Virus record (IMG/VR): IMGVR_UViG_3300037183_000141
Coordinates: 12,464 to 76,463 of that record
Origin: a virus
Taxonomy: Duplodnaviria; Caudoviricetes
Direction: 5' to 3' (one strand)
DNA: 64,000 nt
The notes under the pieces were generated by a model, which was not told the origin of the DNA, searched no databases, and saw nothing but the letters and a program-made list of their open reading frames with translations. A program made the translations under genes and the position numbers. This document shows positions 1 through 38,199 of this stretch, piece by piece (the stretch's first letter is position 1; the number at the start of each line of letters is the position of its first letter).

Positions 1-178
1 TGGCCCGGGCCACGATCCTGGCCAGGCTGGTCTTCCCGCAGCCCTTCGGGCCGCTGAACATCATCGACTGGTCGGCCAGGGTGTGGCCGCGACTCCGGGA
101 CAGGATCAGCCTCTTGATGCCGTCGTTCCCAAGGACGTCGGAGAAGCGGCGGGGCCTGTAGGCAAGGTCAAACGGCAT
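1..178 (-). CDS. dnaX: DNA polymerase III gamma/tau clamp-loader subunit, 5' end only (runs off the window)
   Basis: Not in the ORF track. Manual translation from ATG at 178 gives MPFDLAYRPRRFSDVLGNDGIKRLILSRSRGHTLADQSMMFSGPKGCGKTSLARIVARA: the DnaX YRP..F.DV.G start and a Walker A GPKGCGKT. The start overlaps the stop of the upstream ORF. Confidence 0.9.
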   Translation of the reverse strand, partial: MPFDLAYRPRRFSDVLGNDGIKRLILSRSRGHTLADQSMMFSGPKGCGKTSLARIVARA

Positions 179-4429: not shown

Positions 4430-5065
4430 CTACGCGCGACGGCGAAGACGGAGGGACTTCATCTCCCCGGGGGGCTGATCGACATACCCCTCGTAGGAGA
4501 GGTGGGCGTTCGACATGAATTCGTCGTTATGGGTGACCATGAAGATGTTGATCCCGGTCTCCTCAGAGAGCTGCTTCATGAAGTCGGCGGCCGACGGGAC
4601 GTACCGGTTGGCCAGAGCGAACATCGACTCGTCGAGAAGCAGAAGGTTCGACATCTTCAGACGAGCCATGATGGCGACGCGGAGGACGAAGGAGGCTACG
4701 ACGGCTGCGCCGCCGCCGAACGAGGACATCGGGTCGGCCTCAACACCATCCTCCTCGATGGAGAACCTCATGGCGAGACGGTTATACTTCGGCTCCTGGA
4801 TGATGCGGAACGTCAGCTGCTGGTCGTAGATAATGTGGCGAAGCGCGGTCGTGACGAGGGACGCGATGGAGTCCACGTTCGAACGCAGAAGGTCCTCGAG
4901 CCAGTTCTTGACGACCTCGGAGCCCTTCTGGTTCAGGTCGGCCTTATGCCTGGCGGCGGCGATGAAAGTGGTGGCCGTGGACATCTGAATGCGAAGGACA
5001 TCCCGGTTTGCCTTGACGGCGGCGATGTCCTCCCGCAGTCTCTTGAGACGCTCCACCCTGGTCAC
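4430..5065 (-). CDS. SbcC/Rad50-like ABC ATPase, C-terminal half only
   Basis: Coiled coil, then signature-like SFGGG, Walker B LLLLDE and H-loop MVTHN. No Walker A. Confidence 0.75.
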   Translation of the reverse strand: MTRVERLKRLREDIAAVKANRDVLRIQMSTATTFIAAARHKADLNQKGSEVVKNWLEDLLRSNVDSIASLVTTALRHIIYDQQLTFRIIQEPKYNRLAMRFSIEEDGVEADPMSSFGGGAAVVASFVLRVAIMARLKMSNLLLLDESMFALANRYVPSAADFMKQLSEETGINIFMVTHNDEFMSNAHLSYEGYVDQPPGEMKSLRLRRRA

Positions 5066-6180
5066 CGCTGCACCATCGCCTTCATATAGTGGAAGACAGA
5101 GAAGCCCGAAGGTTGGTCCTTGGGGGAAAGACAGAGGAGAGTCGGGTCCTCCGGATGGTTGTAGGAGATCCGGACGTCGCCGTCGATGTGGTCGACGATG
5201 TGCTTGAAGTTCTTGACCTGGAAGTCGGCGTCGAGCTCGCCGCGGTCATAGGAGTCGAGGGCGAAGTCCGATATCTTCTCGTTGTTGTAGTCCATCACCA
5301 GGCGGTCGGAGCTCGACTGGAAGCGGACGCGGCTCGTCCCCTCGTCCTGAACCACGGTCCCGGCCCAGGCCAAAGCCTTCGAGAGCTGGTCTTTCTTGAT
5401 GACGGCTGAATAGTGGAATAGGCTATTGTCGGCCAGGACAGCCGGGGGCCGCCTCCCGGAGACGCGCGTCAAGGACAGGCAGGAGAGCCCGTCCGAGACA
5501 TACATGCGGTTCTTGTCCTGTGAGAACTGGAGAAGGCCGACCGAGGCCCTGGAGGCGAAAGTGCGGATGGCCGGGGCGTCCGTGCCGATGATGCTGAAGT
5601 CGGGGACGTCGATATCGTTCAAGCGGACGACGGTCCCGTAGAACCTCGTGGTGGAGACGGCGCAGCGCTTGTCGGAGTAGAAGTGAATCTGGTTTATCCG
5701 CATCTCCTCCTCCGTCTTTCCGACGACGGCCGAGCACATGAGGTGTCCCAGGACAGGCTCTATAACGTCTTTGCGGACGGCCAGGACGGACTCGACGTCG
5801 GCCGGGACGACGCCGTTCGGGACGGCGGTCCTCTTGGACCGCTTCGCGCGGCGCTTGAGGCTTGCCTGACGGCTCTGCCCGCCCCCCTCGGCCTTGACCG
5901 AGAGGGATCCCTCGTTGATCTTAATGGTGACCGACTCGAGGTCGGAGTCGAACAGGGAGGTACGCTCCGGGGTCACGTAGAACTCCTCGGATCGGAAGTC
6001 AGCCGGGACGTCCGCGGAGACGTAGCTGACGGAAGACCGGACATAGCGCCGCTTGTCGTACGAGAAGACGACGAGGCCGTCCTTCTCGAACCGCATGCAG
6101 AAGTCCCCGGCCTCGGGCTTCACGATCCTGGCCATCGTGAAGCCGTCGCCAACGGCCTTGGAGCTAAATACGAACTTCAT
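5062..6180 (-). CDS. dnaN: DNA sliding clamp, Pol III beta-like
   Basis: 372 aa (beta-clamp size), repeated beta/alpha pattern, AVVGKTEEEMRINQIHF..AVSTTRF resembling beta domain II; dnaX, holA and holB are in the same block. Confidence 0.6.
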   Translation of the reverse strand: MKFVFSSKAVGDGFTMARIVKPEAGDFCMRFEKDGLVVFSYDKRRYVRSSVSYVSADVPADFRSEEFYVTPERTSLFDSDLESVTIKINEGSLSVKAEGGGQSRQASLKRRAKRSKRTAVPNGVVPADVESVLAVRKDVIEPVLGHLMCSAVVGKTEEEMRINQIHFYSDKRCAVSTTRFYGTVVRLNDIDVPDFSIIGTDAPAIRTFASRASVGLLQFSQDKNRMYVSDGLSCLSLTRVSGRRPPAVLADNSLFHYSAVIKKDQLSKALAWAGTVVQDEGTSRVRFQSSSDRLVMDYNNEKISDFALDSYDRGELDADFQVKNFKHIVDHIDGDVRISYNHPEDPTLLCLSPKDQPSGFSVFHYMKAMVQR

Positions 6181-12546: not shown

Positions 12547-12593
12547 GGGGCTAGGGACTATCAGACACCAAAGGCCTAAGTGTAAAGGCAGAG

Positions 12594-14983: not shown

Positions 14984-16006
14984 TCAGAACTCGTCGTTCA
15001 GCGAGATCGCGCCCTCGACGCCCATCTGATAAGCTGACGGGCGCCGCTCGAAGAAGTTCGTGACCTCCTGGACGTCCTGCGAGTCGAGGAAGGAGAACGG
15101 GTTCTTGGAGCCGAAGCGGCGGGGAAGCTCGAGGCTCGAGAGGCGCTGGTCGGCGCAGTACTCGAGGTAACGGCGGACGTCGCCGGTCGACAGGCCGATG
15201 ACGCCGCCGGAGAGCATATCCTCGGCGAACTGCGTCTCACAGGCCACGGCCTCCTCGAGCATCGTGACGACGTCCTTGGCCAAGACGGAGTCGAAGAGAC
15301 CCGGGTCCTCCCGACGGACCGTGTTCACGATCTGGAAGGCGAAGTTCATGTGCATGGACTCGTCCCGGAATACCCAGTTGGTCCCGGAAGCGAGGCCCTG
15401 CAGCAGGCCCCGCGAGCGAAGGAAGTAGACGTAGGCGAAGGCGCCGAAGAAGAACAGGCCCTCAATGCAGGAGGCGAAGCAGATGAGGTTGAGAAGGAAC
15501 TGCTTACGGTCCCCCTTGGTCCTCAGCTTGTCGATCTCGCTGATCGAGTTCAGCCACTTCATGCAGAAGTCCGCCTTATGGCGGATGGAGGGAATATTCT
15601 CGACCGCCGAGAAAGCATCATTCCGGGCCTTCGGGTCCGGCACGTACGTGTCGAGGAGGGTTAGGTAGAACTGGACGTGGAGGGCCTCCTCATACAGCTG
15701 CCTCGACAGGTACATCCTGGCCTCGGGGGCGTTGATGTGCTTGTAGAGGTTTAGGACCAGGTTGTTCGAGACTATCGAGTCCCCCGTGGCGAAGAAGGCG
15801 ACGAGCCGGTTCACCAGGTGGCGCTCCGAGTCCGTCATCTTGTGCGCCAGATCCTGGACGTCGGTGGAGAAGTCGACCTCCTCCACCGTCCACGTGTTCT
15901 TCACCGCGTTGCGGTACATGTCGAAGAACTCGGGGTAGACCATGGGCCTCAGCGTGAGGCAGAGGCCGGGGTCCAGGATGTTCGAGGGACGGGATATCAG
16001 GCTCAT
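14984..16006 (-). CDS. nrdB: Class Ia ribonucleotide reductase beta subunit
   Basis: WTVEEVDFSTD, FFATGDSIV, QLYEEALHVQFY, IEGLFFFGAF, FRDESMH. Confidence 0.95.
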   Translation of the reverse strand: MSLISRPSNILDPGLCLTLRPMVYPEFFDMYRNAVKNTWTVEEVDFSTDVQDLAHKMTDSERHLVNRLVAFFATGDSIVSNNLVLNLYKHINAPEARMYLSRQLYEEALHVQFYLTLLDTYVPDPKARNDAFSAVENIPSIRHKADFCMKWLNSISEIDKLRTKGDRKQFLLNLICFASCIEGLFFFGAFAYVYFLRSRGLLQGLASGTNWVFRDESMHMNFAFQIVNTVRREDPGLFDSVLAKDVVTMLEEAVACETQFAEDMLSGGVIGLSTGDVRRYLEYCADQRLSSLELPRRFGSKNPFSFLDSQDVQEVTNFFERRPSAYQMGVEGAISLNDEF

Positions 16007-18387
16007 TGGCAGGATTCACAAGACTCAGGGTTCTCGAGGGAGCAGACGACGGCGGCGAGGGCTGCCTCGTCAGACTGTGGCATGGTGGACTTGGTCTCGA
16101 CGGTCGCCTTCGCGATCTTCGTGGCCGGACGGGACCTCAGGTAGTAGGTCGTCTTGAGCCGCTTCTGCCAAGCATAGTTGTACATCGAGGACAGAGGCCC
16201 GATGTTAGGGCTCTCTACAAAGAGATTCAGGGACTGACTCTGATCGATGAACGCGCCGCGGTCCGCGGCCATGTCTATGAGCGAACGCATCGACATCTCC
16301 CAGGCGGTCCGGTAGACCAGCTTTAGGCCCGAGGGGAGCTCGTCCATGGCCTGGACGGAGCCCTCGGACAGCTTCAGACGGGACCTGGTTGCCTCGTTCC
16401 AGAGGCCGAGGTCCTTCAGGTCGTTGACGAGATATTTGTTGACCTGAATGAAGTCCCCGGACATCGTCTCCCTCTTAAAGAGGTTGGATACCTGGGGCTC
16501 GATGCACTCGTAGCAGCCGAGGATGGAGGCGATGGTGGCCGTGGGGGCTATGGCGATGAGCAGGGAGTTCCGGAGGCCGGAGGCCTTGATGCGGGCCTTG
16601 AGGTCGTTCCAGCGAGTGCCCTCGGGAACCACGCCCCAGGCGTCGAACTGGAGCTCGCCGCGGGCGGCGCGCGTCTCCGAGAACCCGGGATGGGCGCCCT
16701 TCTCCTCGGCGAGCTCGACGCTCGCCGTGATGGCGCCGTAGTAAATCTCCTCCGAGATCTTCTTGGAGATCTGGCGTGCCTCCGGGCAGTCGAAAGGGAT
16801 CCGCATCTGAAAGAAGACGTCCTGAAGGCCCATCATGCCGAGGCCGACGGGGCGCCACTTCATGTTCGACGACCTCGCCGTGGGGATCGTGTAGTAGTTG
16901 ATGTCGATGACGCGGTCGAGCTGACGGACCGCGGCGCGGACAGTCTTCGCGAGCTTCAGGTAGTCGAACATCGGCTTGCCGGCGACGTCCATCATGTGGC
17001 GGCCGACGTTGATAGAGCCCAGGTTGCAAACGGCCGTCTCGTCGTCCGACGACAGCTCGAGGATCTCGGTGCAGAGGTTCGAGAGATGGACGGTGCGGCC
17101 GGGGAGGGCCGTCTGGTTGCAGGCGAGGTTCGACTTGTCCTTGAAGCACATCCAACCATTGCCGGTCTGGGCGAGCGTGCGGACCATGCGGGTATATAGA
17201 GCCTGGGCCTTGACGACCTTGACCGCGCGGCCGGAGGCCTCGGCGGCCTCGTAGGCGACCTGAAAGTCGTCGCCGTAGAGGTCGGTCAGGGCGGGGAACT
17301 CCTTCGGGTCGAAGAGGCTCCAGTCCTGGTTAGCGTTGACGCGCTCCATGAACAGATCGGGGATCCAGTTTGCGATGTTCAGGTTATGCGTGCGGCGGGC
17401 CTCGTCGCCGGTGTTATCGCGAAGCTCGAGGAACTCCTCGACGTCCGAGTGCCAGGTTTCAAGGTAGACGCAGCAGGCGCCCTTCCTCTTGCTGCCCTGA
17501 GACACGGCGGCGACAGACGCGTCGAGGGTCTTAAGCCATGGGACGATGCCGTTCGACCTGCCGTTGGTTCCCTTGATGTGCGAGCCGCGCGAGCGGACCC
17601 TGGAGTACGAAATGCCGATGCCGCCGGAGAACTTCGAGAGGCGGGCGACGTCCGCATACTTATTGTAGATCGCCTCGAGCGAGTCCTGGGGCGAGTCGAG
17701 GAGGAAGCAGCTGGAGAGCTGCTCATGGCGGGTCCCGGCGTTGAAGAGGGTCGGGGAGCTCGGGACGTACTCGAAGGACGAGAAAGACGTATAGAGCTCG
17801 ATGGCCTCGGCCACGGTCTCGGACAGGGCGCACGCGATGCGCATGAAGAACTGTTGGGGGGTCTCGAGCGCCATACGGGTCTTCGGGTGCTTCAGGAGAT
17901 AGCGGTCGTAGACCGTCTGCAGGCCGAAGTAGTCGAAGTTGTCGTCGCGGTGCGTCCGGATGGCGTCGTCGAGCTTGCGGGAGTTCGCGCTCACGAAGGA
18001 CTGGAGACGCTCGTTCGCCATGTCAAGGGAGGCCACCATCAACACGGACTGAGAGAACGTCTGGATGCCCTGACCGCGGACCTCCTTGCTCATATACTCG
18101 GAGAGGAGGCGGGCGGCGAGCTTGGCATACTGGGGGTCCTCGACGGTGAGGGAGGCTGCCGTCTGTATGGAGAGCATATCGAGCTCGCGGGATGAGGTCC
18201 CGTCGAAAACGCCGTTTATCGTCTTAGAGGCGACGCGCATCGGGTCAACGTCCGGCAGGCCGTCGCAGCAGCGACGGACGGCCTTGATTATCTTGTTGAT
18301 GTCGGTTGGCTCGAGGGTCCCGTTCCTCTTCCTCACGCGTATCACGGGCTCCGGAGGCGGGGGAGCACTCAGGACAGCGGACATCAT
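16003..18387 (-). CDS. nrdA: Class Ia ribonucleotide reductase alpha subunit with ATP cone
   Basis: VRKRNG ATP cone, SPTLFNAG, LSSCFLL, SNLCTEI, AVCNLGS, IAPTATI, C-terminal CESCQ. Probable start at 18387, just after the holA stop. Confidence 0.95.
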   Translation of the reverse strand: MMSAVLSAPPPPEPVIRVRKRNGTLEPTDINKIIKAVRRCCDGLPDVDPMRVASKTINGVFDGTSSRELDMLSIQTAASLTVEDPQYAKLAARLLSEYMSKEVRGQGIQTFSQSVLMVASLDMANERLQSFVSANSRKLDDAIRTHRDDNFDYFGLQTVYDRYLLKHPKTRMALETPQQFFMRIACALSETVAEAIELYTSFSSFEYVPSSPTLFNAGTRHEQLSSCFLLDSPQDSLEAIYNKYADVARLSKFSGGIGISYSRVRSRGSHIKGTNGRSNGIVPWLKTLDASVAAVSQGSKRKGACCVYLETWHSDVEEFLELRDNTGDEARRTHNLNIANWIPDLFMERVNANQDWSLFDPKEFPALTDLYGDDFQVAYEAAEASGRAVKVVKAQALYTRMVRTLAQTGNGWMCFKDKSNLACNQTALPGRTVHLSNLCTEILELSSDDETAVCNLGSINVGRHMMDVAGKPMFDYLKLAKTVRAAVRQLDRVIDINYYTIPTARSSNMKWRPVGLGMMGLQDVFFQMRIPFDCPEARQISKKISEEIYYGAITASVELAEEKGAHPGFSETRAARGELQFDAWGVVPEGTRWNDLKARIKASGLRNSLLIAIAPTATIASILGCYECIEPQVSNLFKRETMSGDFIQVNKYLVNDLKDLGLWNEATRSRLKLSEGSVQAMDELPSGLKLVYRTAWEMSMRSLIDMAADRGAFIDQSQSLNLFVESPNIGPLSSMYNYAWQKRLKTTYYLRSRPATKIAKATVETKSTMPQSDEAALAAVVCSLENPESCESCQ

Positions 18388-18391
18388 GACA

Positions 18392-19300
18392 TCAGTTTGC
18401 ACGGCTTCGCTTGACATTGTTCTTGGCCTCCTCGGACAGTCTAATAACCTCGGCCTCAAGGCCGAGGGCTGCATATTTCTTGCCGCGCTTGTGTGCCAGG
18501 TCGAGGCGACATAGCTCGGCCAGGCTAGTCTTCAGGGACGAAGGGCTCCACAGGCCGAGACGGGGCTCGACCACCTTCTTGAAGACGAAAGGGTGCATTT
18601 CGATGCGCTTCGCCACATCCTGCGGAGCGAGGCCGGACGCGGACAAAAGCTCCACGCGAAGCTGCTGGATCACGTGCCTCTGGAGAAAGGCTATGATCCA
18701 CCCAGTCTCATCCTGCGCCTCCTGGAGCCGGTCCACGTAGGCGACAGCTTTGACGGGGTGTCCTTCACACACGGCTTCCACTATCTCCTTTGGTGTGAGG
18801 TCCGCTGAAAACGGCAGAACCGATCTAACATCCTCGGGAGTAACCGGCCCCGAAGGCACTAACACTGACAGTTTGCGGACCTCAGAAGCGAGCTTTCTGA
18901 GACTCTTTCGGCTGTTCACAAAAAGGCCCAGCGCGACTCTTCTTAGATCGATGTTATAGCGCTCGCCTTCTTTTACGACCCATGCGACCACCTCGTTTTT
19001 ATCGTCGTACGTCTTGAGTTTCGGGAAGTCGAGACGGCGCGTCGCGGTGGCCAGCTCGAGCTTCTTCTTCGAAATGACAATAAGGACGTCCGGGTCGTTC
19101 GGGAGCTTCGGGACGGAGGTCGCCCGGACGACGAACACGCGACGGCCTCCGCCTATCGGACGGCACGACATCTCCTCCACGTAGGCGGCCTCCTCGTCGA
19201 ACCTGAGGACCGAGTCCGGGAGCATCGAGGTCGCCTCGCCGAGGGCGGCGCGCTCCATGAGGAGCTCCTCCTCACCGCTTATCAAGATAACTGTAGCCAC
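18392..19300 (-). CDS. holA: DNA polymerase III delta subunit-like
   Basis: ILISGEEELL, LASEVRKL, VTPEDV, LCRLDLAHKRG: the HolA pattern. Confidence 0.75.
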   Translation of the reverse strand: MATVILISGEEELLMERAALGEATSMLPDSVLRFDEEAAYVEEMSCRPIGGGRRVFVVRATSVPKLPNDPDVLIVISKKKLELATATRRLDFPKLKTYDDKNEVVAWVVKEGERYNIDLRRVALGLFVNSRKSLRKLASEVRKLSVLVPSGPVTPEDVRSVLPFSADLTPKEIVEAVCEGHPVKAVAYVDRLQEAQDETGWIIAFLQRHVIQQLRVELLSASGLAPQDVAKRIEMHPFVFKKVVEPRLGLWSPSSLKTSLAELCRLDLAHKRGKKYAALGLEAEVIRLSEEAKNNVKRSRAN

Positions 19301-19311
19301 CGAAGGGTAGC

Positions 19312-20112
19312 TTACATCTTCAAAGATAATATAACAGCGTTGCGCCAGTGGATCTCCGCGTTCGCGGACGGGACGCGGACGATGTCGGCGGCGAAGCGGA
19401 GGAAAGCGAGGGCGCCCTCACGGGCGGCGGGGTCCGCCATAAGCGATAAGGCGGCCCTCCGAACGACGAGGGAGACCGCGGTCCGATCGGGGGAGCGGCC
19501 GGACTCGAGGTCCTTGACGACGGACGGGACGGCGAGCTCGAAAGACGGGTCCGCGACGGAAGAGAGGACCGACTCGTGCAGGGCGACGAAGCCGCGAGTA
19601 CATAAGACCGGATAGAGGCCAGGCCTCCCGCAGGACATACTGACAGCGAGGTCGTCCACCTCCTTCCCGAGGGAGAAGGCGAACTCGGACACCTCGGAGT
19701 CGGACAGGGGGAACCAGCGGACGTCCCGGACAACCCTAGAGAGCAGGGGAGGGAGGAGCGAGCGCGGGTCCGAGGAGACGGCGACAATACACGAGCTATC
19801 CGGGGCCTCCTCACACAACTTAAGCCACGAGTCCTGGGCAGGCTCGCTCAGCACGTCGATGTCGTCGATCAGGACCGCACGGAACGGGCTGAACGACGGG
19901 CGGTCGGAGAGGAAAGGCCGGGCCTGACGAGCGCCGTCCGGGCCGGACTCGGCGACGAGGAGGTCCGCCTCGTCGAGCGCGGACTCGAGGTAGGCCCTGA
20001 CGAACGAGGCCTTCCCGACGTGCTCAGGCCCGCTCAGGGTCAGGAAGCGCGGGACGCTCTGTATCGCCGTCTCCGTCTCCCGCTGGGAGCGCTGGTTTCC
20101 GAACGTCGTCAA
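19312..20112 (-). CDS. holB: DNA polymerase III delta-prime subunit-like
   Basis: LSGPEHVGKA, VLIDDIDVLSEPAQDSWLKLCEEAP, LLPPLLSRV (SRC-like motif). Confidence 0.8.
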   Translation of the reverse strand: MTTFGNQRSQRETETAIQSVPRFLTLSGPEHVGKASFVRAYLESALDEADLLVAESGPDGARQARPFLSDRPSFSPFRAVLIDDIDVLSEPAQDSWLKLCEEAPDSSCIVAVSSDPRSLLPPLLSRVVRDVRWFPLSDSEVSEFAFSLGKEVDDLAVSMSCGRPGLYPVLCTRGFVALHESVLSSVADPSFELAVPSVVKDLESGRSPDRTAVSLVVRRAALSLMADPAAREGALAFLRFAADIVRVPSANAEIHWRNAVILSLKM

Positions 20113-24691: not shown

Positions 24692-24952
24692 TTAGGTAGC
24701 TGGGGAAAGCTCCAGATACTGGAGCAGCCCGGACGACGTTGAGTAAACCAGACGTTTGTTCATTATCGTATATTCACCTTCTACGATCCGAACCCTCCTC
24801 CGGTCCGATGGATCTCTGAGTGATATCCGGTCAATTCTGAGGACAGTCCCCTCAGGGACCAGGGGCATTGGATGAACTTTGTACTCGACATGTTTGGGCA
24901 AGTCCATGAAGACAAAGAAAGTCTTCACGCTCCCGGAAGCTTCAGAGGGCAT
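24692..24952 (-). CDS. Hypothetical protein
   Basis: 86 aa, first gene of the leftward block. Confidence 0.45.
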   Translation of the reverse strand: MPSEASGSVKTFFVFMDLPKHVEYKVHPMPLVPEGTVLRIDRISLRDPSDRRRVRIVEGEYTIMNKRLVYSTSSGLLQYLELSPAT

Positions 24953-25075
24953 TTCCTCTTCCTCCCGCCATGGGCTCCTCCGCGTCCAGATCCCGTTATG
25001 AGACTGGGTTTGTCACTTACACTGCACACGCTCAACACTTGGCCGTCTTTGTCACTGTCGTCTCTTCTGACTTCG

Positions 25076-25106
25076 CTACTACTACTACTACTGCTACTAC
25101 TGCTAC
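25076..25106. repeat. Imperfect (CTA/CTG)n microsatellite in the divergent intergenic region
   Basis: ctactactactactactgctactactgctac. Confidence 0.85.
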
Positions 25107-25423
25107 CATCGCCACTGCTTACTCTTACTCCGACTTCGTCTCTGTTCGAGAAGCAAAAGAGGGATCGAAAGGAAAAAGGAAAAGAAGAAAGATCTTCCGT
25201 AGAACGGGCGACGAGGATGAAGACCTCGGCTAGCTCTACTTCGGCATTAGGGACGATGGACCGTTCCCTCAAGCCAATTCTCACGTTCTCCGACCTTCCG
25301 CGTCGATACGCGACTCCGAAATCTCGGGTCCGGACCAGGGGAGCAGCGGTCGTAGCCCCCGTAGATCCGGACAGGCATCCACGACGTATCGTGTTACAAG
25401 ATGCCAAGGTCCGCTCCATTGCG

Positions 25424-26299
25424 ATGGCACTCTACATTGAGCCTGCCGGGGACGTCCTCACCATGACCGGACGGAAGACCGGCAAGAAGGCCACGAAGAA
25501 GCCCGCGGAGAGGCCTTGGAGAGCCCGAAAGCGCGCCGCCATGCGGGAGGAGCGACGCCTCGAGAAGAAGGCCCTCGAGGCCGAGGGCAGGAAGGCCCTC
25601 ATCGACGAGTGCGTTCAGCGCGTCGGCAGGCCGACGGACCGGGAGGCGTTCCGGGAGATCCTGACCGCCCTCGTGGAGAACAATGCCATCCCGGCGGGCC
25701 TCCTGACCACGGTCCCGCAGCGCTCGACGAAGGCCGGCAAAACGCGCTTCGACCAGATCTTCGACGCCTGCATGTTCCTCGCGTTCCCCGAATACCGCCC
25801 GATCGTGCGGGATAAGGCCTTCGGGCCGATAGCGTCACCGGACATGCGGCTGTGGCGCGCGCTCTTTCCGAAGGAGTACGGGCTATCGCACGTCGTCCTC
25901 CGGGCCCGGTCTTTCCAGGAGGCCTTCGCCCTGGCCTGCGACTACGCCTGCCGGCTCTCCCTCCGGGAGAAGCGCCGTATCCCGACCGACATGTCCATCC
26001 GCGTCCAGTTCATGTCGGACCCGAGCGTCGCCCGCATGCTGGACATCCGGCATGCCGTGAAGGACCGGACGCGCAAGGCGTCGAACCTCCGGGGCCGGAG
26101 GTACTCGGCCAAGGCCGTCGCCGGCGCGCGCCTGGTCGCGATAGGCCGTAAGGACGGCAACAACTACAGCATTTTCAAGTACGCGGAGGACAAGGACCTC
26201 AAGCGGATCGCCGAGCTTCGCGCCGAGGTGAGGGTGTCCGCGGTGGAGATCGAGACATTCCGTCCGAAGGAGACCCCCTCGCCGTACGATGTCCCATGA
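25424..26299 (+). CDS. Hypothetical basic protein
   Basis: Coding-like GC3 begins near ATG 25424/25463; ATGA overlap with purZ. Confidence 0.6.
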   Translation: MALYIEPAGDVLTMTGRKTGKKATKKPAERPWRARKRAAMREERRLEKKALEAEGRKALIDECVQRVGRPTDREAFREILTALVENNAIPAGLLTTVPQRSTKAGKTRFDQIFDACMFLAFPEYRPIVRDKAFGPIASPDMRLWRALFPKEYGLSHVVLRARSFQEAFALACDYACRLSLREKRRIPTDMSIRVQFMSDPSVARMLDIRHAVKDRTRKASNLRGRRYSAKAVAGARLVAIGRKDGNNYSIFKYAEDKDLKRIAELRAEVRVSAVEIETFRPKETPSPYDVP

Positions 26300-27477
26300 T
26301 TGAAGGCAAGTTCAACGTGATCCTGGACCAGGCGTGGGGCTCGAGCGGCAAGGGGAAGACCTCGGCCTGGCTTGCCGACCGCTTCAACGTCACCGCGGTC
26401 TCGAGCTCCAACTTCCCGAACGCCGGCCACACGGCCCGCTTCGCGGACGGGACGAAGTTCGTAGCCAAGGCCATCCCGACCGCCGCCATCCTCCGAAAGG
26501 TCAAGGGGCTCGGCGTCGAGTGCTTCGTCTCCCCGGGATCCGGCTTCGACCCCGTCCAGCTCATCAAGGAGTGGGAGGAATGCGGCCATCCGAAGATCCG
26601 GATCCACGCGAGGGCGAACCTCGTGACGGCGGAGCACAAGCGACGGGAGTCGGACGGCAGCGAGTCGACGAAGCACGTCGCCTCCACGATGCAGGGGACG
26701 GCGGCGGCCATGTGCGACAAGATCCTCCGCCGCCCGGACGCCCTCCTCGCCGACTCCATGTGGGCCCCGGCGTACGGCCTGGACGTCGACGGCCTCGAGG
26801 GACGCCTCGGCGAGCTCGTCGACAACGTCCGGGTCCACGACGCGCTCGAGTTCCGGACAATGACCCGGAACATGATCCGCGCCGGGCAGACCTGGCTGCA
26901 CGAGGGCTCCCAAGGGTACGCCCTGTCCATCGACCACGGCTCGCACTACCCCCAGTGCACCTCCCGGAACTGCACGCTCCAGGCGCAGATGGACCACATG
27001 GCCATCCCGCCGGCGCTGGTCGGCGACGTCTACCTGAACCTCCGCTCTAGGCCCATAAGGGTCGGGAACGTGGTCGAGAATGGAAAGCAAGTCGGATATT
27101 CGGGTGACTTCTATCCAGACTGTGAGGAGATGACATGGGCTGAGGTGGCTGAAAAAGCCGGCATGCCCCCGGAAGAGGCGGCGTCTTTGGCCGAAAGAGA
27201 GCGGACGACCGTCACGAAGCGGATTCGACGAGTAGCAACGTTCAGTTTCGACGGCCTCAGAGATGCCGTGGCGGTAAATGGGGCCACAAAGCTCGTCATG
27301 AACTTTATTCAGTATATCGATTGGAAAGATGCCGGTCTCAGAGGCGGAAAGAGCGCATTCGAACGTCTTTCTTCGAAGAGTCGTGCCTTCATCGACCAAG
27401 TTGAAGAAGCAGCAAACCTTCCCGTAGTCTTGGTTGGTACCGGCGCTGACCATGAGGAGATGATAGAACGTTTTTGA
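26296..27477 (+). CDS. purZ: Adenylosuccinate synthetase homologue of PurZ type (probable 2-amino-deoxyadenylosuccinate synthetase)
   Basis: QAWGSSGKGK (Ser where PurA has the catalytic Asp in GDEGKG), NAGHT, EGSQGYALSIDHG..YPQCTSRNCT, RSRPIRVG, ERTTVTKRIRRV. Confidence 0.8.
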   Translation: MIEGKFNVILDQAWGSSGKGKTSAWLADRFNVTAVSSSNFPNAGHTARFADGTKFVAKAIPTAAILRKVKGLGVECFVSPGSGFDPVQLIKEWEECGHPKIRIHARANLVTAEHKRRESDGSESTKHVASTMQGTAAAMCDKILRRPDALLADSMWAPAYGLDVDGLEGRLGELVDNVRVHDALEFRTMTRNMIRAGQTWLHEGSQGYALSIDHGSHYPQCTSRNCTLQAQMDHMAIPPALVGDVYLNLRSRPIRVGNVVENGKQVGYSGDFYPDCEEMTWAEVAEKAGMPPEEAASLAERERTTVTKRIRRVATFSFDGLRDAVAVNGATKLVMNFIQYIDWKDAGLRGGKSAFERLSSKSRAFIDQVEEAANLPVVLVGTGADHEEMIERF

Positions 27478-27974
27478 TGTTCCCTATCATGAATAGGGAA
27501 CATCAAATTAAACATGGGCATTATGTCGGGGACAGACCGAGTCCTGAATATTATTCATGGAGATCCATTAAAGCCCGGTGTTTAAGGCAGAGTCACCATA
27601 GCAACGATGTGTATGGAAAGATACCTCTGCATCCCGAGTGGGCGTCCAGTTTTTCGACGTTCTTAGCAGCAGTTGGGCCTCGTCCTTCGAAAAAACACAC
27701 TCTAGACAGAATCAAAGGTGAGCTGGGATACGTCCCCGGGAACGTCCGCTGGGCACCTCGCCGTGTTCAGAACAGAAACCGGAAAGATAATGTTTGGATC
27801 GAGGCTGATGGGAAGAGGATGTGTCTGGAGGACTGGGCTGCCCATTTGGGCTGTTCTCCGGCTGCCATCAGGACGAGGATAAAGAGAGGGTGGGACCCTG
27901 TGAGGGCCGTCACGACCGTCCCAGACAAGCGCTTTCAGCTCCAGAACTTAACCCCAAATCGTAAAGTGCAGACG
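27474..27974 (+). CDS. HNH-type homing endonuclease, no stop, in frame with the next gene
   Basis: EYYSWRSIKARC..HTLDRI..GYVPGNVRWA..QNRNR, plus a C-terminal HTH-like tail; lower GC. Confidence 0.7.
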
Positions 27975-28700
27975 ATGAGCGAGCTCACGGTGTCGATCTC
28001 CGACAGGGGAGAGGTCAAGGTCTTCGTGGACGGCCTCCAGGTCGGCCTGATCCAGGAGCTGACCGTCAGGGCGGCAGTGGATAGGCCGATGCCGGCCGTC
28101 GAGGTCCGCCTCCCGAAGAGCTCGATCATCGAAGCCTCGGGGGAGGCGGTAAGGGACGCCCATAAGGGGTATCTCGAGCTCCTCCGCAGGATCCCGTCGG
28201 TCGTCCTGATGAGCGGGGATGAGCCGACGGGGACGGACAGCGAGGTCATCCTCTACTTCCTCGACCAGGCGGTCGACGGCGGCGGCCGGACGCTGACCCA
28301 GGTCATGCAGAAGGACAACTCGTGGTTCGAGCGCGCCCACGACTACATCCAGTGGATGCTGCCGACGCGCCGGCGCAGCAAGTACGAGCCGTCCGCGCCG
28401 GTCCTCACGGACCGGGATATTCAGGTCTTCCAGGTTAGGCGCGACCTCCGGGAGGCCTACTCGTTCGGCGTCGACCGCGTGAAGCGTTTTCTCGAGCTCG
28501 ACCAGATGTGCCCGGTCTGGGTCCGCCGGAAGGACCATAACCACAAGCGGATCTCCCGCCTCATCGAGAGCCTCATGGACCTCGGGTTCGAGGAGCGCGC
28601 CCGCCGCGTCCTCGAGCAGGTCCTCCGCATCGAGCGGGCGAACCCGGACATCATCGACCCGGAGGCCGTGGAGCACTGGAAGCAAGCCTGTGCCCGCTGA
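27975..28700 (+). CDS. OGFr (opioid growth factor receptor)-like domain protein
   Basis: FERAHDYIQWMLP..SAPVL..HNHKRISRLIESL; own ATG at 27975 preceded by CGTA-N11. Confidence 0.7.
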   Translation: MSELTVSISDRGEVKVFVDGLQVGLIQELTVRAAVDRPMPAVEVRLPKSSIIEASGEAVRDAHKGYLELLRRIPSVVLMSGDEPTGTDSEVILYFLDQAVDGGGRTLTQVMQKDNSWFERAHDYIQWMLPTRRRSKYEPSAPVLTDRDIQVFQVRRDLREAYSFGVDRVKRFLELDQMCPVWVRRKDHNHKRISRLIESLMDLGFEERARRVLEQVLRIERANPDIIDPEAVEHWKQACAR

Positions 28701-28932: not shown

Positions 28933-29428
28933 GCGGGTCGTCCGTCTTCCGCTTGCGCTTGAGGTGGATCCCAATCTGGTCCGGGTTGTCCACCATGTAC
29001 CTATGCACGCGCTCGAAGTAGCCCTTGAGGGGCTGCGCCGCGTCGCGCATGAGAAGGCGCTCGAACATGAGGAAGCCCTCCGGGTCCTCGGTCCAGAGCC
29101 AGTCCTCCGTGATGGGGACGCCGGGCGAGACCTGGCTCCAGGTGTTCCCGTGCGGGAACATGAGCAGTATGTACTCCGTCTTGGCGAAGTGCGGGTTGGG
29201 CATCGCCACGAACTTCTCGTGGCGCTTGACGGAGAAGAACGTCCCAGGGGGGAGCTCGACCCCGTCGTGCGAGGACGTGACCCAGCGCTTGATGCTCATC
29301 CACTTCGTCTCGGGCGTCTTTATCCCGGACGACTTCCGGCACTTGAGGGAGCAGCTGTAGAGGGCGGACGGCGAGAGGCCGCACGTCCACGGCCTGAAGT
29401 CCTCGGGTATGCCCGGCACGCGGTGCAT
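28913..29428 (-). CDS. Hypothetical protein
   Basis: High GC3 from ATG 29428. Confidence 0.55.
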   Translation of the reverse strand: MHRVPGIPEDFRPWTCGLSPSALYSCSLKCRKSSGIKTPETKWMSIKRWVTSSHDGVELPPGTFFSVKRHEKFVAMPNPHFAKTEYILLMFPHGNTWSQVSPGVPITEDWLWTEDPEGFLMFERLLMRDAAQPLKGYFERVHRYMVDNPDQIGIHLKRKRKTDDPLSTTDE

Positions 29429-29510
29429 GGAGTCGACCCAGTACGACTCTTTCGAGATCCTCTGTTGTATGCTCGACCTAATTTCGTTGTCCATCATGGA
29501 GGTATCGGAT

Positions 29511-30848
29511 ATGAGCGCTACGGACGTCTTCTGCATCACCGACCAGGACGGGAGACTCCTCCCTCCGGCCGTACAGGCCACTGTACTGGCTAAGTACTCG
29601 AGATCGCCCCTCTCGGCCCGGGAGCTGGTACGAGACCTTACAGAGGCGGCGGCCGACAAGTTCCAGGAGAAGTGGGTTGTCGGCTACGGGCACAACTCGG
29701 TGGCGGAGCTCGCCGTGGTTCCCGTGTGCTTCGAGGGCGTCTCCATCGTGGCCTCCAAGTTCATCGAGGGCTGGCAGCGCGCGGGCTACTCCGAGAAGAG
29801 CACCCGGTACCAGGTGTTCTCCCGGGACTCGTTCATCACGCCGCCCGGAGCCCCGGCCACTATGAAGAAGTTCGCGGAGCGCTTCTACGACGCCTACGAG
29901 CGCCTTCTCCCGAAGGTGACCATGCATGTGGCAAAGCTCGTCGGGGACGACATGGACAACCCGAAGGCCTCGACGAGGGCGCGAGCGTTCGACAACGTCC
30001 GATACCTCCTCCCGGCCGGGACCGGGACGAACGTCGCCGCGGTCGTGAACATGCTCGACGCCCGCCGGATGGTCTCCGGGCTAAAAGGGCATGCCAACCC
30101 GGAGTTCCAGGCCCTGGGCGAGAAGATGGAGGCCGCCGTCACGGCGCTGGCCCCCACTCTGGTCCGCCACACGGAGCCGGACGGGTTTCAGCTGCCCGTG
30201 AAGGGCCTCGGAAACCTGCCCGAGGACTTCAGTCACGACGACCCTACGCCGTACGTCAAGCTGAACAAGCCTTACCTTCTGCCCGCCCCGGCCCTCGAGC
30301 AGGCCGCCTTCGAGTCCGCGGTGGTCGACCTCCACGGGATGGACTGGGCGAGCTTCTCCGCCTTCATGGAGACGCGCCCGGCCTACTCGGAGGTCCCGAA
30401 CGTTTTCAAGACCGTGAAGCTCTCGTTCGAGGTCATGATGGACTACGGCGCTTACAGGGACCTCCAGAGACACCGGCGCTGCGAGCAGTTTGCCGAGCCG
30501 CTCGGGATCCACTATGGCTACGTCGTCCCGGAGGACATCGTCGGCACGGAGTTCGAGGGCGAGTACCGGCAGGCCATGGAGGCCATCGACGCCTACGACG
30601 ACGAGGCGGTCATTCATGACCAAGACCTCTTTCAGTACATGATCCCGCTCGGCTACCTGCATCGCTCCCTGTTCCAGATGGACCTGAAGGAGTGGTACTA
30701 TCTGACCGAGCTCCGGACGAAGCCGCAGGGCCATATCTCGTACCGTCGGATTGCCTACGAGATCTTCCGGATCGGGAGTGAGCGCTTACCGGGCCTCACC
30801 GGATGGTGTCGTGCCATCAAACCCGACGCCGTCGGGGTCCACCACTGA
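29511..30848 (+). CDS. thyX: Flavin-dependent thymidylate synthase, tandem Thy1-domain type
   Basis: GYGHNSVAE, SEKSTRYQ, ARAFDNVRYLLP, second-domain RDLQRHRR. Confidence 0.8.
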   Translation: MSATDVFCITDQDGRLLPPAVQATVLAKYSRSPLSARELVRDLTEAAADKFQEKWVVGYGHNSVAELAVVPVCFEGVSIVASKFIEGWQRAGYSEKSTRYQVFSRDSFITPPGAPATMKKFAERFYDAYERLLPKVTMHVAKLVGDDMDNPKASTRARAFDNVRYLLPAGTGTNVAAVVNMLDARRMVSGLKGHANPEFQALGEKMEAAVTALAPTLVRHTEPDGFQLPVKGLGNLPEDFSHDDPTPYVKLNKPYLLPAPALEQAAFESAVVDLHGMDWASFSAFMETRPAYSEVPNVFKTVKLSFEVMMDYGAYRDLQRHRRCEQFAEPLGIHYGYVVPEDIVGTEFEGEYRQAMEAIDAYDDEAVIHDQDLFQYMIPLGYLHRSLFQMDLKEWYYLTELRTKPQGHISYRRIAYEIFRIGSERLPGLTGWCRAIKPDAVGVHH

Positions 30849-31871: not shown

Positions 31872-32299
31872 CTACTCGTTCATCACGGTCTCGAGCGCGA
31901 ACTCTTCCGGAGTGGCAGGACGGAACTTGACCAGCATTCTCTTGACCGTCCTCCCCCAGCTGTCCCAGTGCCTTGCCCAGACAACGATGTGGAGGGAGTG
32001 GAGGACGGTCTTCCTCTCCCCGTCCCCGAAGTTCTCGTGGCCGACGTCCCACACGAACATCCCTGGCTCCACTTCGTGCTTGCCGTGCTCGACCATCACC
32101 TTCCGGTCCTTGCACTGACCGACCAGGTTGTTGATCCCGAACCTCTGCTGTCTCTCGTAATAATGGAGCGTTACCTGCCTCTGGACTGCCTTCCTCACCG
32201 CTCCCCTTCCCTGCGGGCCGAGATGGTGCCGAAGATCGAGCTCGCGTACCACCCTATTCCGGAAACGAACAAATAGTTCATCTTGTACTGTGTGTTCAT
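31872..32299 (-). CDS. Hypothetical protein with C-terminal VMNE tag
   Basis: Probable ATG 32299. Confidence 0.55.
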
Positions 32300-33158
32300 G
32301 ATAGACATTCATGAAGTCGCTAGACTTTACGGAATGGGTCTTACTCAGGAAGAGGTGGCCGTCCGTCTCAGGTGCCACGTAAACTCAGTGAGAAGACTCA
32401 TGAAGTCCCTTGGCCTCAAAGTGCGCCCGAAAAGCCGTATCTACGGACTCAATGAATCGTTCTTCGAGACGATAGACTCAGAAGAAAAAGCATACTGGCT
32501 CGGCTTCGCCTTGGCCGATGGATCAATAAAGAAAACCAAGTATGGAACCCCATGCTCTTTGGTCGTCGGCCTGAGCTCGGTAGACTCGCATCATCTTGAA
32601 TCGCTCAAGACAGCCCTCAGATACACAGGACCTGTGAAGACAATAAACTACTTCGACAAGAGGTACGGGAAATGGTACAGACGAAGTCAGCTGGAACCAT
32701 CAAGCAGAAAGCTTTGTTCTGACTTACTCGACAAGGGCTGGGACGACTTCAAAAGAAAAGGTTATATCAGAATATTAGGAGAAGTTTTGGAAAAATTTAT
32801 GTCAGCTCTCCTACGGGGTCTCGTTGACGGGGATGGGTGTTTATTGCTGAATAAATATGGATCAAAGACAATAACTCTTTTTCATTTCACAGATCTTCAT
32901 CAGTCGGTTGTTGAATGGGTTGCCGTTCGGGTTAAGGAGCAACTACACATACCGATTCCAAAGTTTTTGAAAAATGGGAACGGGACAAGAAAAGGTTTCC
33001 ATATACGATATGCAAGACATGAACATGTTCGAGCTATAGCTCGTTTTCTTTACTCCGGACCTCCTAGCCTGGAAAGAAAACAGACTGTCGCCGATAGATT
33101 ATCGTCCGCTGTCTTTTTTCATCCAGGTTGTCGAAAAAGTGGATGCATAGAACCATAG
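32298..33158 (+). CDS. Free-standing double-motif LAGLIDADG homing endonuclease with N-terminal HTH
   Basis: AYWLGFALADGSI and LRGLVDGDGCL; AT-rich; opposite strand to its flanks. Confidence 0.85.
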   Translation: MIDIHEVARLYGMGLTQEEVAVRLRCHVNSVRRLMKSLGLKVRPKSRIYGLNESFFETIDSEEKAYWLGFALADGSIKKTKYGTPCSLVVGLSSVDSHHLESLKTALRYTGPVKTINYFDKRYGKWYRRSQLEPSSRKLCSDLLDKGWDDFKRKGYIRILGEVLEKFMSALLRGLVDGDGCLLLNKYGSKTITLFHFTDLHQSVVEWVAVRVKEQLHIPIPKFLKNGNGTRKGFHIRYARHEHVRAIARFLYSGPPSLERKQTVADRLSSAVFFHPGCRKSGCIEP

Positions 33159-35171: not shown

Positions 35172-35633
35172 ATGACATCCTTCAACGCCTACTATAGCAA
35201 CATAAGCGCGGTGAACTCGTTCGTCCGACAGCATCTCCCGTCCGTCGAATGGCTGGTGTCGACCCGGGACGAGGACCGTGGGACCGGGAGGACCACGGCG
35301 CTCGCCCTCGCTTTCCTTCGGAACTCCTTCTCCTCAGCGCACCCGACAAGGGCCTTCGACCACGCCGATGGAGGCGGGTTCGACTCAAAACAATGGATCA
35401 AGATGAAGCTCCAGGAGATGTCGCCCGGCCTCTTCATCGGACAGGACGGGACCCTGGAGAGCCAGCCGGCGTACGCCGCCAGCCCGTCGAGCCCACAGTT
35501 CAACGACACCCTCTTGAAGGTCCGGCAAGACTTCATGAGCGTGGTCACTTCCGCCGTAAGACTCGGGGTCGACCCGACCTGGATGATGAAGCAGCTCCAG
35601 AACGCCCTGGCCGAGTCGGTGATGAACACATGA
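35172..35633 (+). CDS. Hypothetical protein with C-terminal VMNT tag
   Basis: Contains RGTGRTT (P-loop-like remnant). Confidence 0.55.
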   Translation: MTSFNAYYSNISAVNSFVRQHLPSVEWLVSTRDEDRGTGRTTALALAFLRNSFSSAHPTRAFDHADGGGFDSKQWIKMKLQEMSPGLFIGQDGTLESQPAYAASPSSPQFNDTLLKVRQDFMSVVTSAVRLGVDPTWMMKQLQNALAESVMNT

Positions 35634-36181
35634 AGGTCGTGCTCGACGTCGACGGACCGCTGACGGACTTCCACACCAAGGCGAGGCTGGTCATCAAGTC
35701 GGAGTTCGGCTACGATCTCCCCATCTCCGCGTACAAGGAATGGGACGTCACGAGCGTCCTCCCGACGCAGGCGGAGAAAGACCGGATGAACGAGCTGATC
35801 GCAAAGCCCGGCTGGGCCTCGTCCATGATCCCGGACCAGGAGGCCATGCGAGCGGTCCGCACGATGCGTAGTTACGGGGCCGACATCCTGTTCGCGACGG
35901 CCCCTCACCCGAAGAGCAAGACGTGGAAGGAAGAGCGGGAGGCTTGGCTAATCGAGCACTTCGGCGCGCACCACCTCGAGGTCGCCCACATTCATAGAAA
36001 GGACTTCCTCACCGGAGGCGTGTTCGTGGACGACAAGCCGTCGAACGTCCGCGGGTGGCAGAAGAGCAACCCGGACGGATACGGGTTTCTGTGGGCCAAG
36101 GACTACAACAGGACGGAGGTCGGCCTCATGTTCGCAGAGTCCTGGGATCCCGTTCTCTCAGAAGTCCGGGACTGGAGGTAG
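35630..36181 (+). CDS. HAD 5'(3')-deoxyribonucleotidase (NT5C-like)
   Basis: VLDVDGPLTDF, FATAP, FVDDKPSN; ATGA overlap. Confidence 0.85.
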   Translation: MKVVLDVDGPLTDFHTKARLVIKSEFGYDLPISAYKEWDVTSVLPTQAEKDRMNELIAKPGWASSMIPDQEAMRAVRTMRSYGADILFATAPHPKSKTWKEEREAWLIEHFGAHHLEVAHIHRKDFLTGGVFVDDKPSNVRGWQKSNPDGYGFLWAKDYNRTEVGLMFAESWDPVLSEVRDWR

Positions 36182-37206: not shown

Positions 37207-37260
37207 GGGGCCGTGTACTGAGGCTAGGCCTCGACTTGCGCCGAGGTGTATTCTCGGCAG

Positions 37261-38199
37261 ATGTCGTATTCTCTAAAGCAATTCATGGTGTGCATTTCCG
37301 GGTACTCCGGCTCCGGGAAGGACGAGTTCGCCCGGATATTCGCGGACGAGATGCAAGCGCCGAAGGTCGGCCTGGCGGACCCGGCGAAACGCCATATGGC
37401 GGACCTCTACGGGTTCACCGAAGACCAGCTCTTCGGCCCAAGCGCCTCCCGAAACGCCGGCGACCTCCGGTATCCGAAGCCGAGCTTCACGTCCTCCGGG
37501 CTGTGCATTTCCAGCGCGACCGCGGAGGAGCCCCCGGCGGAGCTCAGGGGAGAGCTGAAGCCGGGCGTCCCGTACTGGGAGATGAGCTCTAGGAAGGTGA
37601 CGCCGGAGGCACACGAGGCCGTCCGAAAGCTTCCGTTCGTCCTCGGGCAGCTCGGGGACGCGACCGTCTACGTCCCGGAGGGGCACCCGTCGTTCTGGCT
37701 CTCCCCGAGGGAGAGCCTGCAGCTCTACTGCGAGCTCATGAACACCCTGTACAGGGACACCTGGATCCGGAAGTCAGTGCACACGCACATGCGGCTCGGC
37801 GGGACCACCGAGATCGCCGGGCACCGCTTCATGTCGTTCACCTACGACAGGATGTTCGGCCTCATGGTCCCGAGCCCCGACAAGCTAATCCCGGCCCCGG
37901 AGGACGGCGGGACGTTCTTCTCGTGCTCGGCCGACTTCAGGCATAGGCACGAGTTCAACCTGGCCAGAAAGATGAGGACGGACGACTTCATCCCGGTCAT
38001 GGTCCGCGTGAAGAGGCCGAGCGTGCCCGTGCCGCCCTTCGACCATCGGTCGGAGACGGAGCAGGCGACCATCCCGGACGGGTTCTTCGACTTCGTCGTG
38101 GACAACGACAAGACGGTGGAGGACCTGCACGATCAGGCGAGGGAGATCATCAAGACTGTCCAGATCCCGGGCTGGCGGCCGCTCCGGGGGTCGCTGTGA
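37261..38199 (+). CDS. Phage deoxynucleoside monophosphate kinase
   Basis: ISGYSGSGKD, ADPAK, SPRESLQ, DFRHRHE, HRSE, VVDND. Confidence 0.75.
   Translation: MSYSLKQFMVCISGYSGSGKDEFARIFADEMQAPKVGLADPAKRHMADLYGFTEDQLFGPSASRNAGDLRYPKPSFTSSGLCISSATAEEPPAELRGELKPGVPYWEMSSRKVTPEAHEAVRKLPFVLGQLGDATVYVPEGHPSFWLSPRESLQLYCELMNTLYRDTWIRKSVHTHMRLGGTTEIAGHRFMSFTYDRMFGLMVPSPDKLIPAPEDGGTFFSCSADFRHRHEFNLARKMRTDDFIPVMVRVKRPSVPVPPFDHRSETEQATIPDGFFDFVVDNDKTVEDLHDQAREIIKTVQIPGWRPLRGSL

Follow-up and report, generated by a model that had tools for sequence, protein, structure and literature searches.

We analyzed a window of 64,000 nucleotides, bases 12464-76463 of the IMG/VR record IMGVR_UViG_3300037183_000141 (G000, 76,463 bp in total), that carries a gene, purZ, for a PurZ-type enzyme; with PurZ, some phages exchange the adenine of their DNA for 2-aminoadenine (Z). 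Positions are those of the window unless another record is named, and the protein encoded by purZ is called the query.

26296..27477, + strand: PurZ-type succino-amino-deoxyadenylate synthetase, 393 aa (Pfam, NCBIfam, PHROG, residues, tree, Foldseek)

The locus is a single open reading frame (ORF) whose G+C fraction is 0.81 at third codon positions (GC3) versus 0.46 at second positions (GC2). It is a real gene, its codon-position G+C being typical for genes of this contig of 62% G+C, and its start and the stop codon of the preceding ORF overlap as ATGA. An earlier note, made from the letters of the stretch alone, had called the product PurZ-type, and all the motifs that it quoted (DQAWGSSGKGK, NAGHT, EGSQG...CTSRNCT, RPIRVG and TTVTKRIRR) are present in the translation. 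The product matched Pfam Adenylsucc_synt (PF00709; 102 bits, E 3e-29) and PHROG 1211, the PurZ family (E 1e-53). PurZ NF038379 was the top NCBIfam model with 188 bits, short archaeal PurA (PRK04293) the second with 163 bits, and bacterial PurA scored 116 bits. A PADLOC scan of the protein gave no match.

We compared the query with PurA, with the PurZ of the Z phages phiVC8 and S-2L, with the PurZ0 of Arthrobacter, Gordonia and Microbacterium phages (PDB 7VF6) and with cellular PurA paralogues that also carry Ser in the P-loop. The P-loop of the query reads D-x-x-W-G-S-S-G-K-G, as against G-x-Q-W-G-D-E-G-K-G in PurA, and Ser16 stands at the position of the PurA catalytic Asp (phiVC8 S14). This Ser was present in all 120 closest homologues and in 124 of 124 motif-bearing representatives (150 were listed, the others being fragments or split by inteins). 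The residues equivalent to E. coli T271 and R303, which the earlier note had picked out for comparison, were in the PurZ state: the T271 position is Ile in P-I-R-V-G (Y-(S/T)-T-R-V-G in PurA), and the R303 region carries a TTVTK-type insertion, T-T-V-T-K-R-I-R-R, where PurA has T-T-G-R-R-R-R. After RVG the query has an insertion ending in Y-P-D that contains Y273; both are common to PurZ only, and PurA lacks the insertion. Query T304 corresponds to phiVC8 T262. Trp14 occupies the position of phiVC8 F12; it is aromatic, but it is also the PurA state and hence does not discriminate.

The base-specific motif is N-F-I-Q-Y in the query and T-K-L-D in PurA. Residues N336-F337-I-Q339-Y340 correspond to L-N-F-A-Q-Y of S-2L PurZ, with an identical N-F-x-Q-Y pocket, and F337, Q339 and Y340 align with F295, N297 and Y298 of phiVC8 and with N305-F306-x-Q308 of S-2L. 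In the S-2L enzyme the adenine of (d)ATP is held by N305, F306 and Q308, the last of which clashes with a purine bearing a 2-amino group (PMC8342488). At the Q339 position, PurA, archaeal PurA, PurZ0 and the cellular paralogues all retain Asp. Because PurZ0 and the cellular paralogues have this Asp and lack the Y244 insertion, the query is PurZ-like and not PurZ0-like. A metagenomic association study identified 13 positions that separate the PurZ on dZ-enriched contigs from PurA (10.1101/2025.10.22.683976), and nine of these, among them S14, T262, F295 and Y298, are in the PurZ or S-2L state in the query.

The phylogeny rests on an alignment of 166 sequences, namely the query with close homologues, 114 representatives drawn from a search of 1.84 billion cluster representatives, the PurZ of phiVC8 and SH-Ab 15497, PurZ0 from three actinophages, cellular Ser-type paralogues, 14 short archaeal PurA and five long PurA. 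Trees were built with FastTree (166 rows), with a quick IQ-TREE run and with a careful IQ-TREE run (87 rows, LG+C20+F+G4 with posterior mean site frequencies (PMSF); supports given here are ultrafast bootstrap/SH-aLRT), and were rooted on long PurA; the three concurred in topology. All Ser-type proteins formed one clade (100/99), and the short archaeal PurA formed a separate one. Within the Ser-type clade, PurZ0 (100/100) and the cellular GSEGKG proteins were basal. A clade supported at 100/97, which leaves out PurZ0, the cellular Ser-type paralogues and archaeal PurA, united the characterised PurZ group (99/86; phiVC8, SH-Ab 15497) with a 26-row subclade that holds the query (100/99). The order of branching between this group and the query's subclade was not settled by the trees.

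An AlphaFold2 model of the query (pLDDT 90.4, pTM 0.91) had S-2L PurZ (7ODX, E 1e-29) and phiVC8 PurZ (6FKO) as its top Foldseek matches, with P. horikoshii PurA next and PurZ0 at rank 16. The assignment as PurZ-type is thus borne out by motifs, key residues, fold and a phylogeny that includes PurA, PurZ and PurZ0. A reading as a PurA-like auxiliary metabolic gene was dropped on residue states and tree, and membership in PurZ0 on the base-pocket motif and tree. With a word-indexed search we obtained 795 homologues (E<=1e-10). The best 120 of them, on contigs as long as 445 kb, are 64-100% identical to the query and all have GSSGKG. Of the clusters in the representative library, 217 fell below E 1e-30, the best 150 of which outscore any characterised PurZ, and at least 167 stretches in IMG/VR encode relatives of the query. 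As judged from these comparisons, the gene belongs to a distinct, well-supported PurZ subclade of uncultured huge phages.

The size of the phage was estimated from completeness and synteny. The record has no terminal repeat, and its CheckV completeness of 18% for 76,463 bp implies a genome of ~425 kb. By tblastn, 47 ORFs of the contig match a complete IMG/VR record of 436,316 bp with direct terminal repeats and 50% G+C (G002), where they form one collinear block from 365 kb to 421 kb at 35-65% amino acid identity. From the CheckV estimate and this collinearity we can soundly infer that purZ sits in a jumbo or huge phage (>200 kb) with a genome of ~400 kb, as the earlier note had proposed; the 76 kb alone would be insufficient. 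The contig represents the part that is syntenic to G002 365-436 kb, and the G002 polymerase and a pair of HD and MazG-like genes lie at 169-182 kb, the pair itself at 168.8-170.0 kb. When 24 kb of the window was compared with 50,697 phage records by megablast, there were zero matches. The stretch was recovered in Logan contigs from peat and lake metagenomes; the two that hold it in full are peat metagenomes and may be the source of the phage. We examined 24 IMG/VR contigs with genes of the PurZ subclade further (183-436 kb). Members of the query lineage have a PurZ at least 58% identical to the query; five of them are complete genomes, 362-436 kb long, with terminal repeats.

We also looked for replication genes, and three candidates for clamp and clamp-loader proteins were found in the window.

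1..178, - strand: DnaX-like clamp-loader ATPase, N-terminal end (PF13177, 85 bits at G000 12138-12539)
5062..6180, - strand: sliding-clamp-like processivity factor (PHROG 947, E 4e-8, its sole support)
19312..20112, - strand: HolB/delta-prime-like clamp-loader subunit (PF13177, 31 bits)

The DnaX-like ORF spans G000 11241-12641 (466 aa), and only its first 178 nt fall inside the window. The earlier note had listed dnaX, holA, holB and a clamp. We recovered the DnaX-like, the HolB-like and, by PHROG 947 only, the clamp-like gene, but searches of the contig for HolA (PF06144) and for the beta-clamp domain (PF02768) came back negative. The note went on to deduce a Pol III-like replicase, and here it did not hold up. 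A phage with clamp and clamp-loader genes need not have Pol III alpha. No polymerase gene of any family searched, PolA and DnaE included, was found in the 76 kb of the contig, although such negatives carry little weight, as the contig covers 18% of the genome. DnaE (PF07733) is absent from all five complete relatives, each of which has one full-length family A polymerase of ~950-1000 aa. In G002, the sole relative checked for both, the PHP domain and PolB are absent as well. The family A polymerase of the relatives carries a 3'-5' exonuclease domain. That of G002 scored 57 and 35 bits with the DpoZ models NF038380 and NF038381 (cut-offs 500 and 350), as against 909 for the phiVC8 DpoZ control, and a tblastn search of phages with a relative's PolA showed no affinity to DpoZ phages, the best match, at 35%, lying in an uncultured phage of 485 kb. 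Two incomplete members of the lineage, G049 (L243:4297-5997) and G059 (164.5 kb), encode a stand-alone DnaE-like protein of 566 aa. It consists of palm (PF07733) and finger domains only, without PHP, beta-binding and OB parts, and its gene adjoins that of a collagen-repeat protein; these phages have a full PolA besides.

The relatives encode candidate partners of PurZ. A homologue of PHROG 7076 (dATP triphosphohydrolase), a YfbR-like HD protein, occurs in five of the five complete relatives; the copy of G002, which was the one scanned, has 7076 as its best PHROG (E 2e-18). Beside the HD gene there is a MazG-like gene in seven of seven relatives, directly following on the same strand in six and partial on the opposite strand in one. 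Similarity of the MazG-like protein to S-2L MazZ is marginal. Positions 20 and 22 of the HD protein are Y/F and S/T, with Tyr at 20 in five of the six proteins compared, whereas S-2L DatZ has W20/I22. A pair of the Y20 and S/T22 type has been reported solely on contigs that were experimentally enriched for dZ (10.1101/2025.10.22.683976). Two of the five complete relatives encode a PurB whose score exceeds the TIGR00928 cut-off.

82.1-83.0 kb of G048 (L235:1031-2464): PurB adenylosuccinate lyase (TIGR00928, 474 bits)
351.3-352.1 kb of G052 (L236:808-2268): PurB adenylosuccinate lyase (TIGR00928, 418 bits)

By their sequences, these phage PurB proteins would be the enzymes that turn the PurZ product into dZMP, a step for which known Z phages rely on the host.

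A sister lineage was found among the records with PurZ of the same 26-row subclade. It comprises eight IMG/VR records of 185-408 kb, four of them complete (G060-G066 and G069; loci L173, L178, L179, L182-L185 and L168). Its PurZ is 42-46% identical to the query, with a P-loop of D-G-Q-W-G-S-(T/C)-G-K-G and a base motif of N-F-A-N-Y. DnaE is present in all eight records, often in several pieces, and no PHROG 7076 homologue was found in any of the eight. A configuration of PurZ with a Pol III-type polymerase, which the earlier note had ascribed to the phage studied here, is therefore seen in this sister huge-phage lineage but not in the five complete relatives of the query lineage.

We consider it probable that the gene encodes a functional PurZ which feeds a Z-DNA pathway in a huge phage, together with a non-DpoZ family A polymerase and DatZ-like removal of dATP. 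PurZ would condense dGMP and aspartate, with ATP or dATP as phosphate donor, to N6-succino-2-amino-2'-deoxyadenylate (dSMP), the committed precursor of dZTP. The dGMP would be supplied by the MazG-like pyrophosphatase. Host PurB, or phage PurB in some relatives, would release dZMP from dSMP, and a phage deoxynucleoside monophosphate (dNMP) kinase or host kinases would convert it to dZTP. The DatZ-like HD hydrolase would clear dATP, and the family A polymerase of ~960 aa, probably with the phage clamp and clamp loader, would write Z opposite T. The proposed logic of a non-DpoZ polymerase with a DatZ-like hydrolase is that of S-2L, which reaches full substitution with a non-selective PrimPol that relies on DatZ (PMC8342488). 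What the analysis demonstrates are the sequence states, the tree, the fold, the synteny and the joint occurrence of partner genes in complete relatives. For the phage studied here we infer the substrate use of the enzyme, what the partner genes do, that they lie in the ~80% of the genome that was not sampled, and Z in virion DNA.

Several observations weigh against this reading. The 188 bits of the query do not reach the 300-bit cut-off of NF038379, a model built from a small-phage PurZ set, and identity to the PurZ of phiVC8 and S-2L is ~31-33%. The query departs from the PurZ state at four of the 13 discriminating positions, namely F12 (W14), I34 (S36), G256 (A285) and S273 (T315). Substitution to Ser proves nothing by itself, since Ser-type PurA paralogues are common in bacterial chromosomes and the P-loop Ser alone is not diagnostic. 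The contig, at 18% of the genome, contained neither datZ nor mazZ in the searches run, and the Z genes of G002 are scattered over ~230 kb, unclustered unlike those of known Z phages. By the NCBIfam models the family A polymerase of G002, the one scanned, appears not to be a DpoZ.

Some of these observations would also fit a working PurZ in a genome that is not fully Z, either through partial incorporation or because during infection the enzyme serves chiefly to remodel the dGTP and dATP pools. By the NCBIfam models the G002 polymerase is not DpoZ, the DatZ-like protein of the complete relatives lacks the W20/I22 pair of S-2L, the genes are spread out in G002, and the S-2L Z-cluster gave only partial substitution in E. 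coli (PMC8342488). However, S-2L itself is fully substituted with its non-selective PrimPol and DatZ (PMC8342488), and the HD/MazG-like pair is kept in all complete relatives, and we regard incomplete substitution as unlikely. It is more doubtful still, and in our judgment quite improbable, that Z-DNA is made by a DnaE-type Pol III replicase encoded in the unsampled part of this phage's genome. The DnaX-like, HolB-like and clamp-like genes of the contig would suit such an enzyme, as would the palm-and-finger gene of the two incomplete group members and the DnaE of the sister group, whose PurZ is of the same subclade. Yet none of the five complete relatives has DnaE and all have full-length PolA, G002 is without PHP and PolB, the contig is collinear with this DnaE-less genome, and the DnaE-like genes within the group lack the PHP, beta-binding and OB parts.

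The least probable of the alternatives, to which we give very little credence, is an auxiliary enzyme that converts IMP to ordinary adenylosuccinate and, with PurB, boosts AMP and dATP for a very large genome. Membership in Pfam Adenylsucc_synt, canonical PurB in two relatives, the many metabolic genes of huge phages and the existence of cellular Ser-type paralogues without known substrates all lend it something. Against it stand the change of the catalytic Asp to Ser, of the guanine-specific Asp of TKLD to Gln and of the T271 position to Ile, the PurZ-type TTVTK insertion in the R303 region, the nesting of the query in the PurZ clade apart from PurA, and the co-occurrence in relatives of partners for dATP removal and dGMP supply. 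Beyond the favoured Z-DNA pathway, we put forward tentatively a wider picture that is possible but not one we would yet expect: the query lineage writes Z with a non-DpoZ PolA, clamp and clamp loader, and a Y20/S22 DatZ, the sister lineage does so with DnaE, one PurZ subclade serves phages of 230-436 kb, and Z-DNA extends beyond sipho- and podoviruses of ~40 kb. If true, the sister lineage would be the first case of Z-DNA made by a C-family replicase, without a recognisable DatZ, and a Pol III alpha-type enzyme might handle dZTP.

We compared the query and its lineage with the known systems. With the PurZ of phiVC8, S-2L and SH-Ab 15497 (PDB 6FM1, 7ODX), the query has in common the Ser for the catalytic Asp, PIRVG, TTVTK(K/R)xRR, the post-RVG insertion ending in Y-P/S-D and the N-F-x-(N/Q)-Y adenine pocket, as well as the same well-supported clade (phiVC8, SH-Ab) and its best structural matches (7ODX, 6FKO). 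It differs in having GSSGKG and not GSTGKG in the P-loop, in its low identity and in its separate 26-row subclade. Phages of the query lineage measure 360-436 kb, compared with ~40 kb for these Z phages; their purZ does not adjoin datZ or mazZ, and their polymerase is neither DpoZ nor PrimPol. The complete relatives resemble the DatZ/MazZ/DpoZ systems in the YfbR-like HD protein with an adjacent MazG-like gene and in an exonuclease-bearing family A polymerase, but differ in Y/F20 and S/T22, in marginal MazZ similarity and in failing both DpoZ models, and the genes lie off the studied contig.

PurZ0 shares the P-loop Ser, PIRV(A/G) and TTVT(Q/N)KVRR with the query, but it keeps the base-motif Asp, has GSEAKG, lacks the Y244 insertion and branches outside the query's clade; its partner genes are dutZ and dmtZ (PMC12884076), not HD or MazG-like genes. 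Short archaeal PurA (Pyrococcus horikoshii type, PRK04293) is similarly compact at ~340-390 aa, without the long bacterial insertions, and its TM-score is close to that of PurZ. Unlike the query it has GDEGKG, Y-V-T-RVG and TKLD and forms its own clade. The cellular GSEGKG paralogues share the Ser P-loop, PIRV, TTVTKKVRR and an aromatic pocket, N-F-x-D-Y. They differ from the query in the Glu after Ser, in the retained base-motif Asp, in the lack of the Y244 insertion and in a position basal to the viral PurZ clade.

These paralogues (L014-L093) occur in more than 444 GTDB species, bacterial and archaeal, alongside canonical PurA, with examples in Terriglobus roseus (L052; NC_018014.1, 5.09 Mb), Pseudomonas putida (L091), Corallococcus (L045) and Paenibacillus. 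Many are fused to an N-terminal P-loop kinase-like domain of ~190 aa. PADLOC gave only weak kinase-domain matches for the kinase-PurA-like fusions, resembling the kinase part of the dCTPase defence model, and it is a guess on our part that the fusions act as a nucleotide-depleting defence. We also observed a PurZ of the canonical small-phage type, with GSTGKG and N-F-I-N-Y, in a record of 286,688 bp with inverted terminal repeats that was rated complete (G068, locus L199). Its best representative match lies in the phiVC8-side clade, and PolA, DnaE and PHROG 7076 were not found in searches of the record.

Z phages have been described as small sipho- and podoviruses in seven gene-sharing groups (PMC12884076), and dZ has been predicted in more than 2000 viruses by PurZ homology (PMC13128860). 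Members of the query's clade may already stand unremarked in lists of such predictions. Literature on PurZ, diaminopurine and aminoadenine gave no link to jumbo phages, huge phages or megaphages within the coverage of our search, which excludes most subscription journals. To our knowledge, the characterised Z phages are all of ~40-70 kb, use DpoZ or PrimPol and keep their Z genes in one cluster. We rate the chemistry and logic as known and the PurZ subclade, the genome scale, the polymerase and the gene arrangement as new. If the lineage has Z-DNA, the pathway works in genomes of about tenfold the size, in which the genes are dispersed and replication uses a different polymerase and a sliding clamp, and huge-phage biology, including evasion of restriction and CRISPR and the stability of the DNA, must reckon with a non-canonical base. 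The lineage offers new PurZ, DatZ-like and polymerase sequences for the engineering of Z-DNA synthesis. For annotation, a large PurZ subclade from the environment escapes the NCBIfam cut-off, and the Ser substitution taken alone fails to tell PurZ from widespread cellular paralogues.

The genes next to purZ form part of a block that is conserved in G002.

24872..26299, + strand: upstream ORF, no Pfam or PHROG match; its stop overlaps the purZ start (ATGA)
27474..28700, + strand: HNH homing-type endonuclease with OGFr_N-like C-terminal part (PHROG 3377, E 7e-37; OGFr_N, 30 bits)
29025..29360, + strand: small conserved ORF between purZ and thyX, 51% identical to G002 404633-404959, no Pfam match
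29409..30848, + strand: ThyX, flavin-dependent thymidylate synthase (Pfam Thy1, 108 bits), 63% identical to G002 405130-406446

Over its C-terminal 224 aa the upstream ORF has 47% identity to G002 402054-402725, which immediately precedes the G002 purZ, and the order of upstream ORF, purZ, small ORF and thyX is kept in G002 as a conserved nucleotide-metabolism block. The HNH gene, which sits between purZ and thyX, has no counterpart there in G002, indicating an insertion in this phage. Several PurZ-like genes of the subclade (P0121, P0122, P0123 and P0134) encode 750-1200 aa and contain one or two inteins with LAGLIDADG endonucleases, as judged from Intein_splicing, Hint and LAGLIDADG matches. 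Given these inteins and the HNH gene inserted after purZ in the window, selfish elements seem to settle preferentially in or next to purZ, as they do with essential replication genes.

Further genes of nucleotide and DNA metabolism lie elsewhere in the window.

11128-11931, - strand: NAD-dependent DNA ligase, C-terminal half (PHROG 3869 positions 388-652)
12952-14181, + strand: NAD-dependent DNA ligase, adenylation and OB half
14984..18474, - strand: ribonucleotide reductase small and large subunits (Ribonuc_red_sm, 272 bits; Ribonuc_red_lgC, 635 bits)
35249..36181, + strand: NT5C-type 5'-deoxynucleotidase domain protein (Pfam NT5C)
37246..38199, + strand: deoxynucleoside monophosphate kinase-like protein (PHROG 139, E 8e-24; weak Pfam DNMK match)
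42103-42702, - strand: second NT5C-type copy (Pfam NT5C)

The dNMP kinase-like protein is a candidate for the phosphorylation of dZMP. The Pfam NT5C scores of the two nucleotidases are 48 and 54 bits, and the ligase is split into two divergent genes. A RecD2-type helicase, a primase-like gene and DHH and CYTH proteins are also encoded in the window. The remaining features concern DNA modification, defence and mobile elements.

168-1889, - strand: Mom-family domain protein, 573 aa, of lower G+C (74 bits; weak Vsr-like endonuclease match)
32283-33158, + strand: LAGLIDADG-type endonuclease ORF in a low-G+C stretch (55% G+C at 32-34 kb)
44299-44958, - strand: Tad2-like (Thoeris anti-defence 2) domain protein (36 bits)
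54647-55885, + strand: Cas8c (Cas_Csd1; 123 bits)

The presence of a Mom-type modifier of adenine N6 together with purZ in one genome raises the question of which base is its target. The LAGLIDADG-type ORF is probably another homing element.

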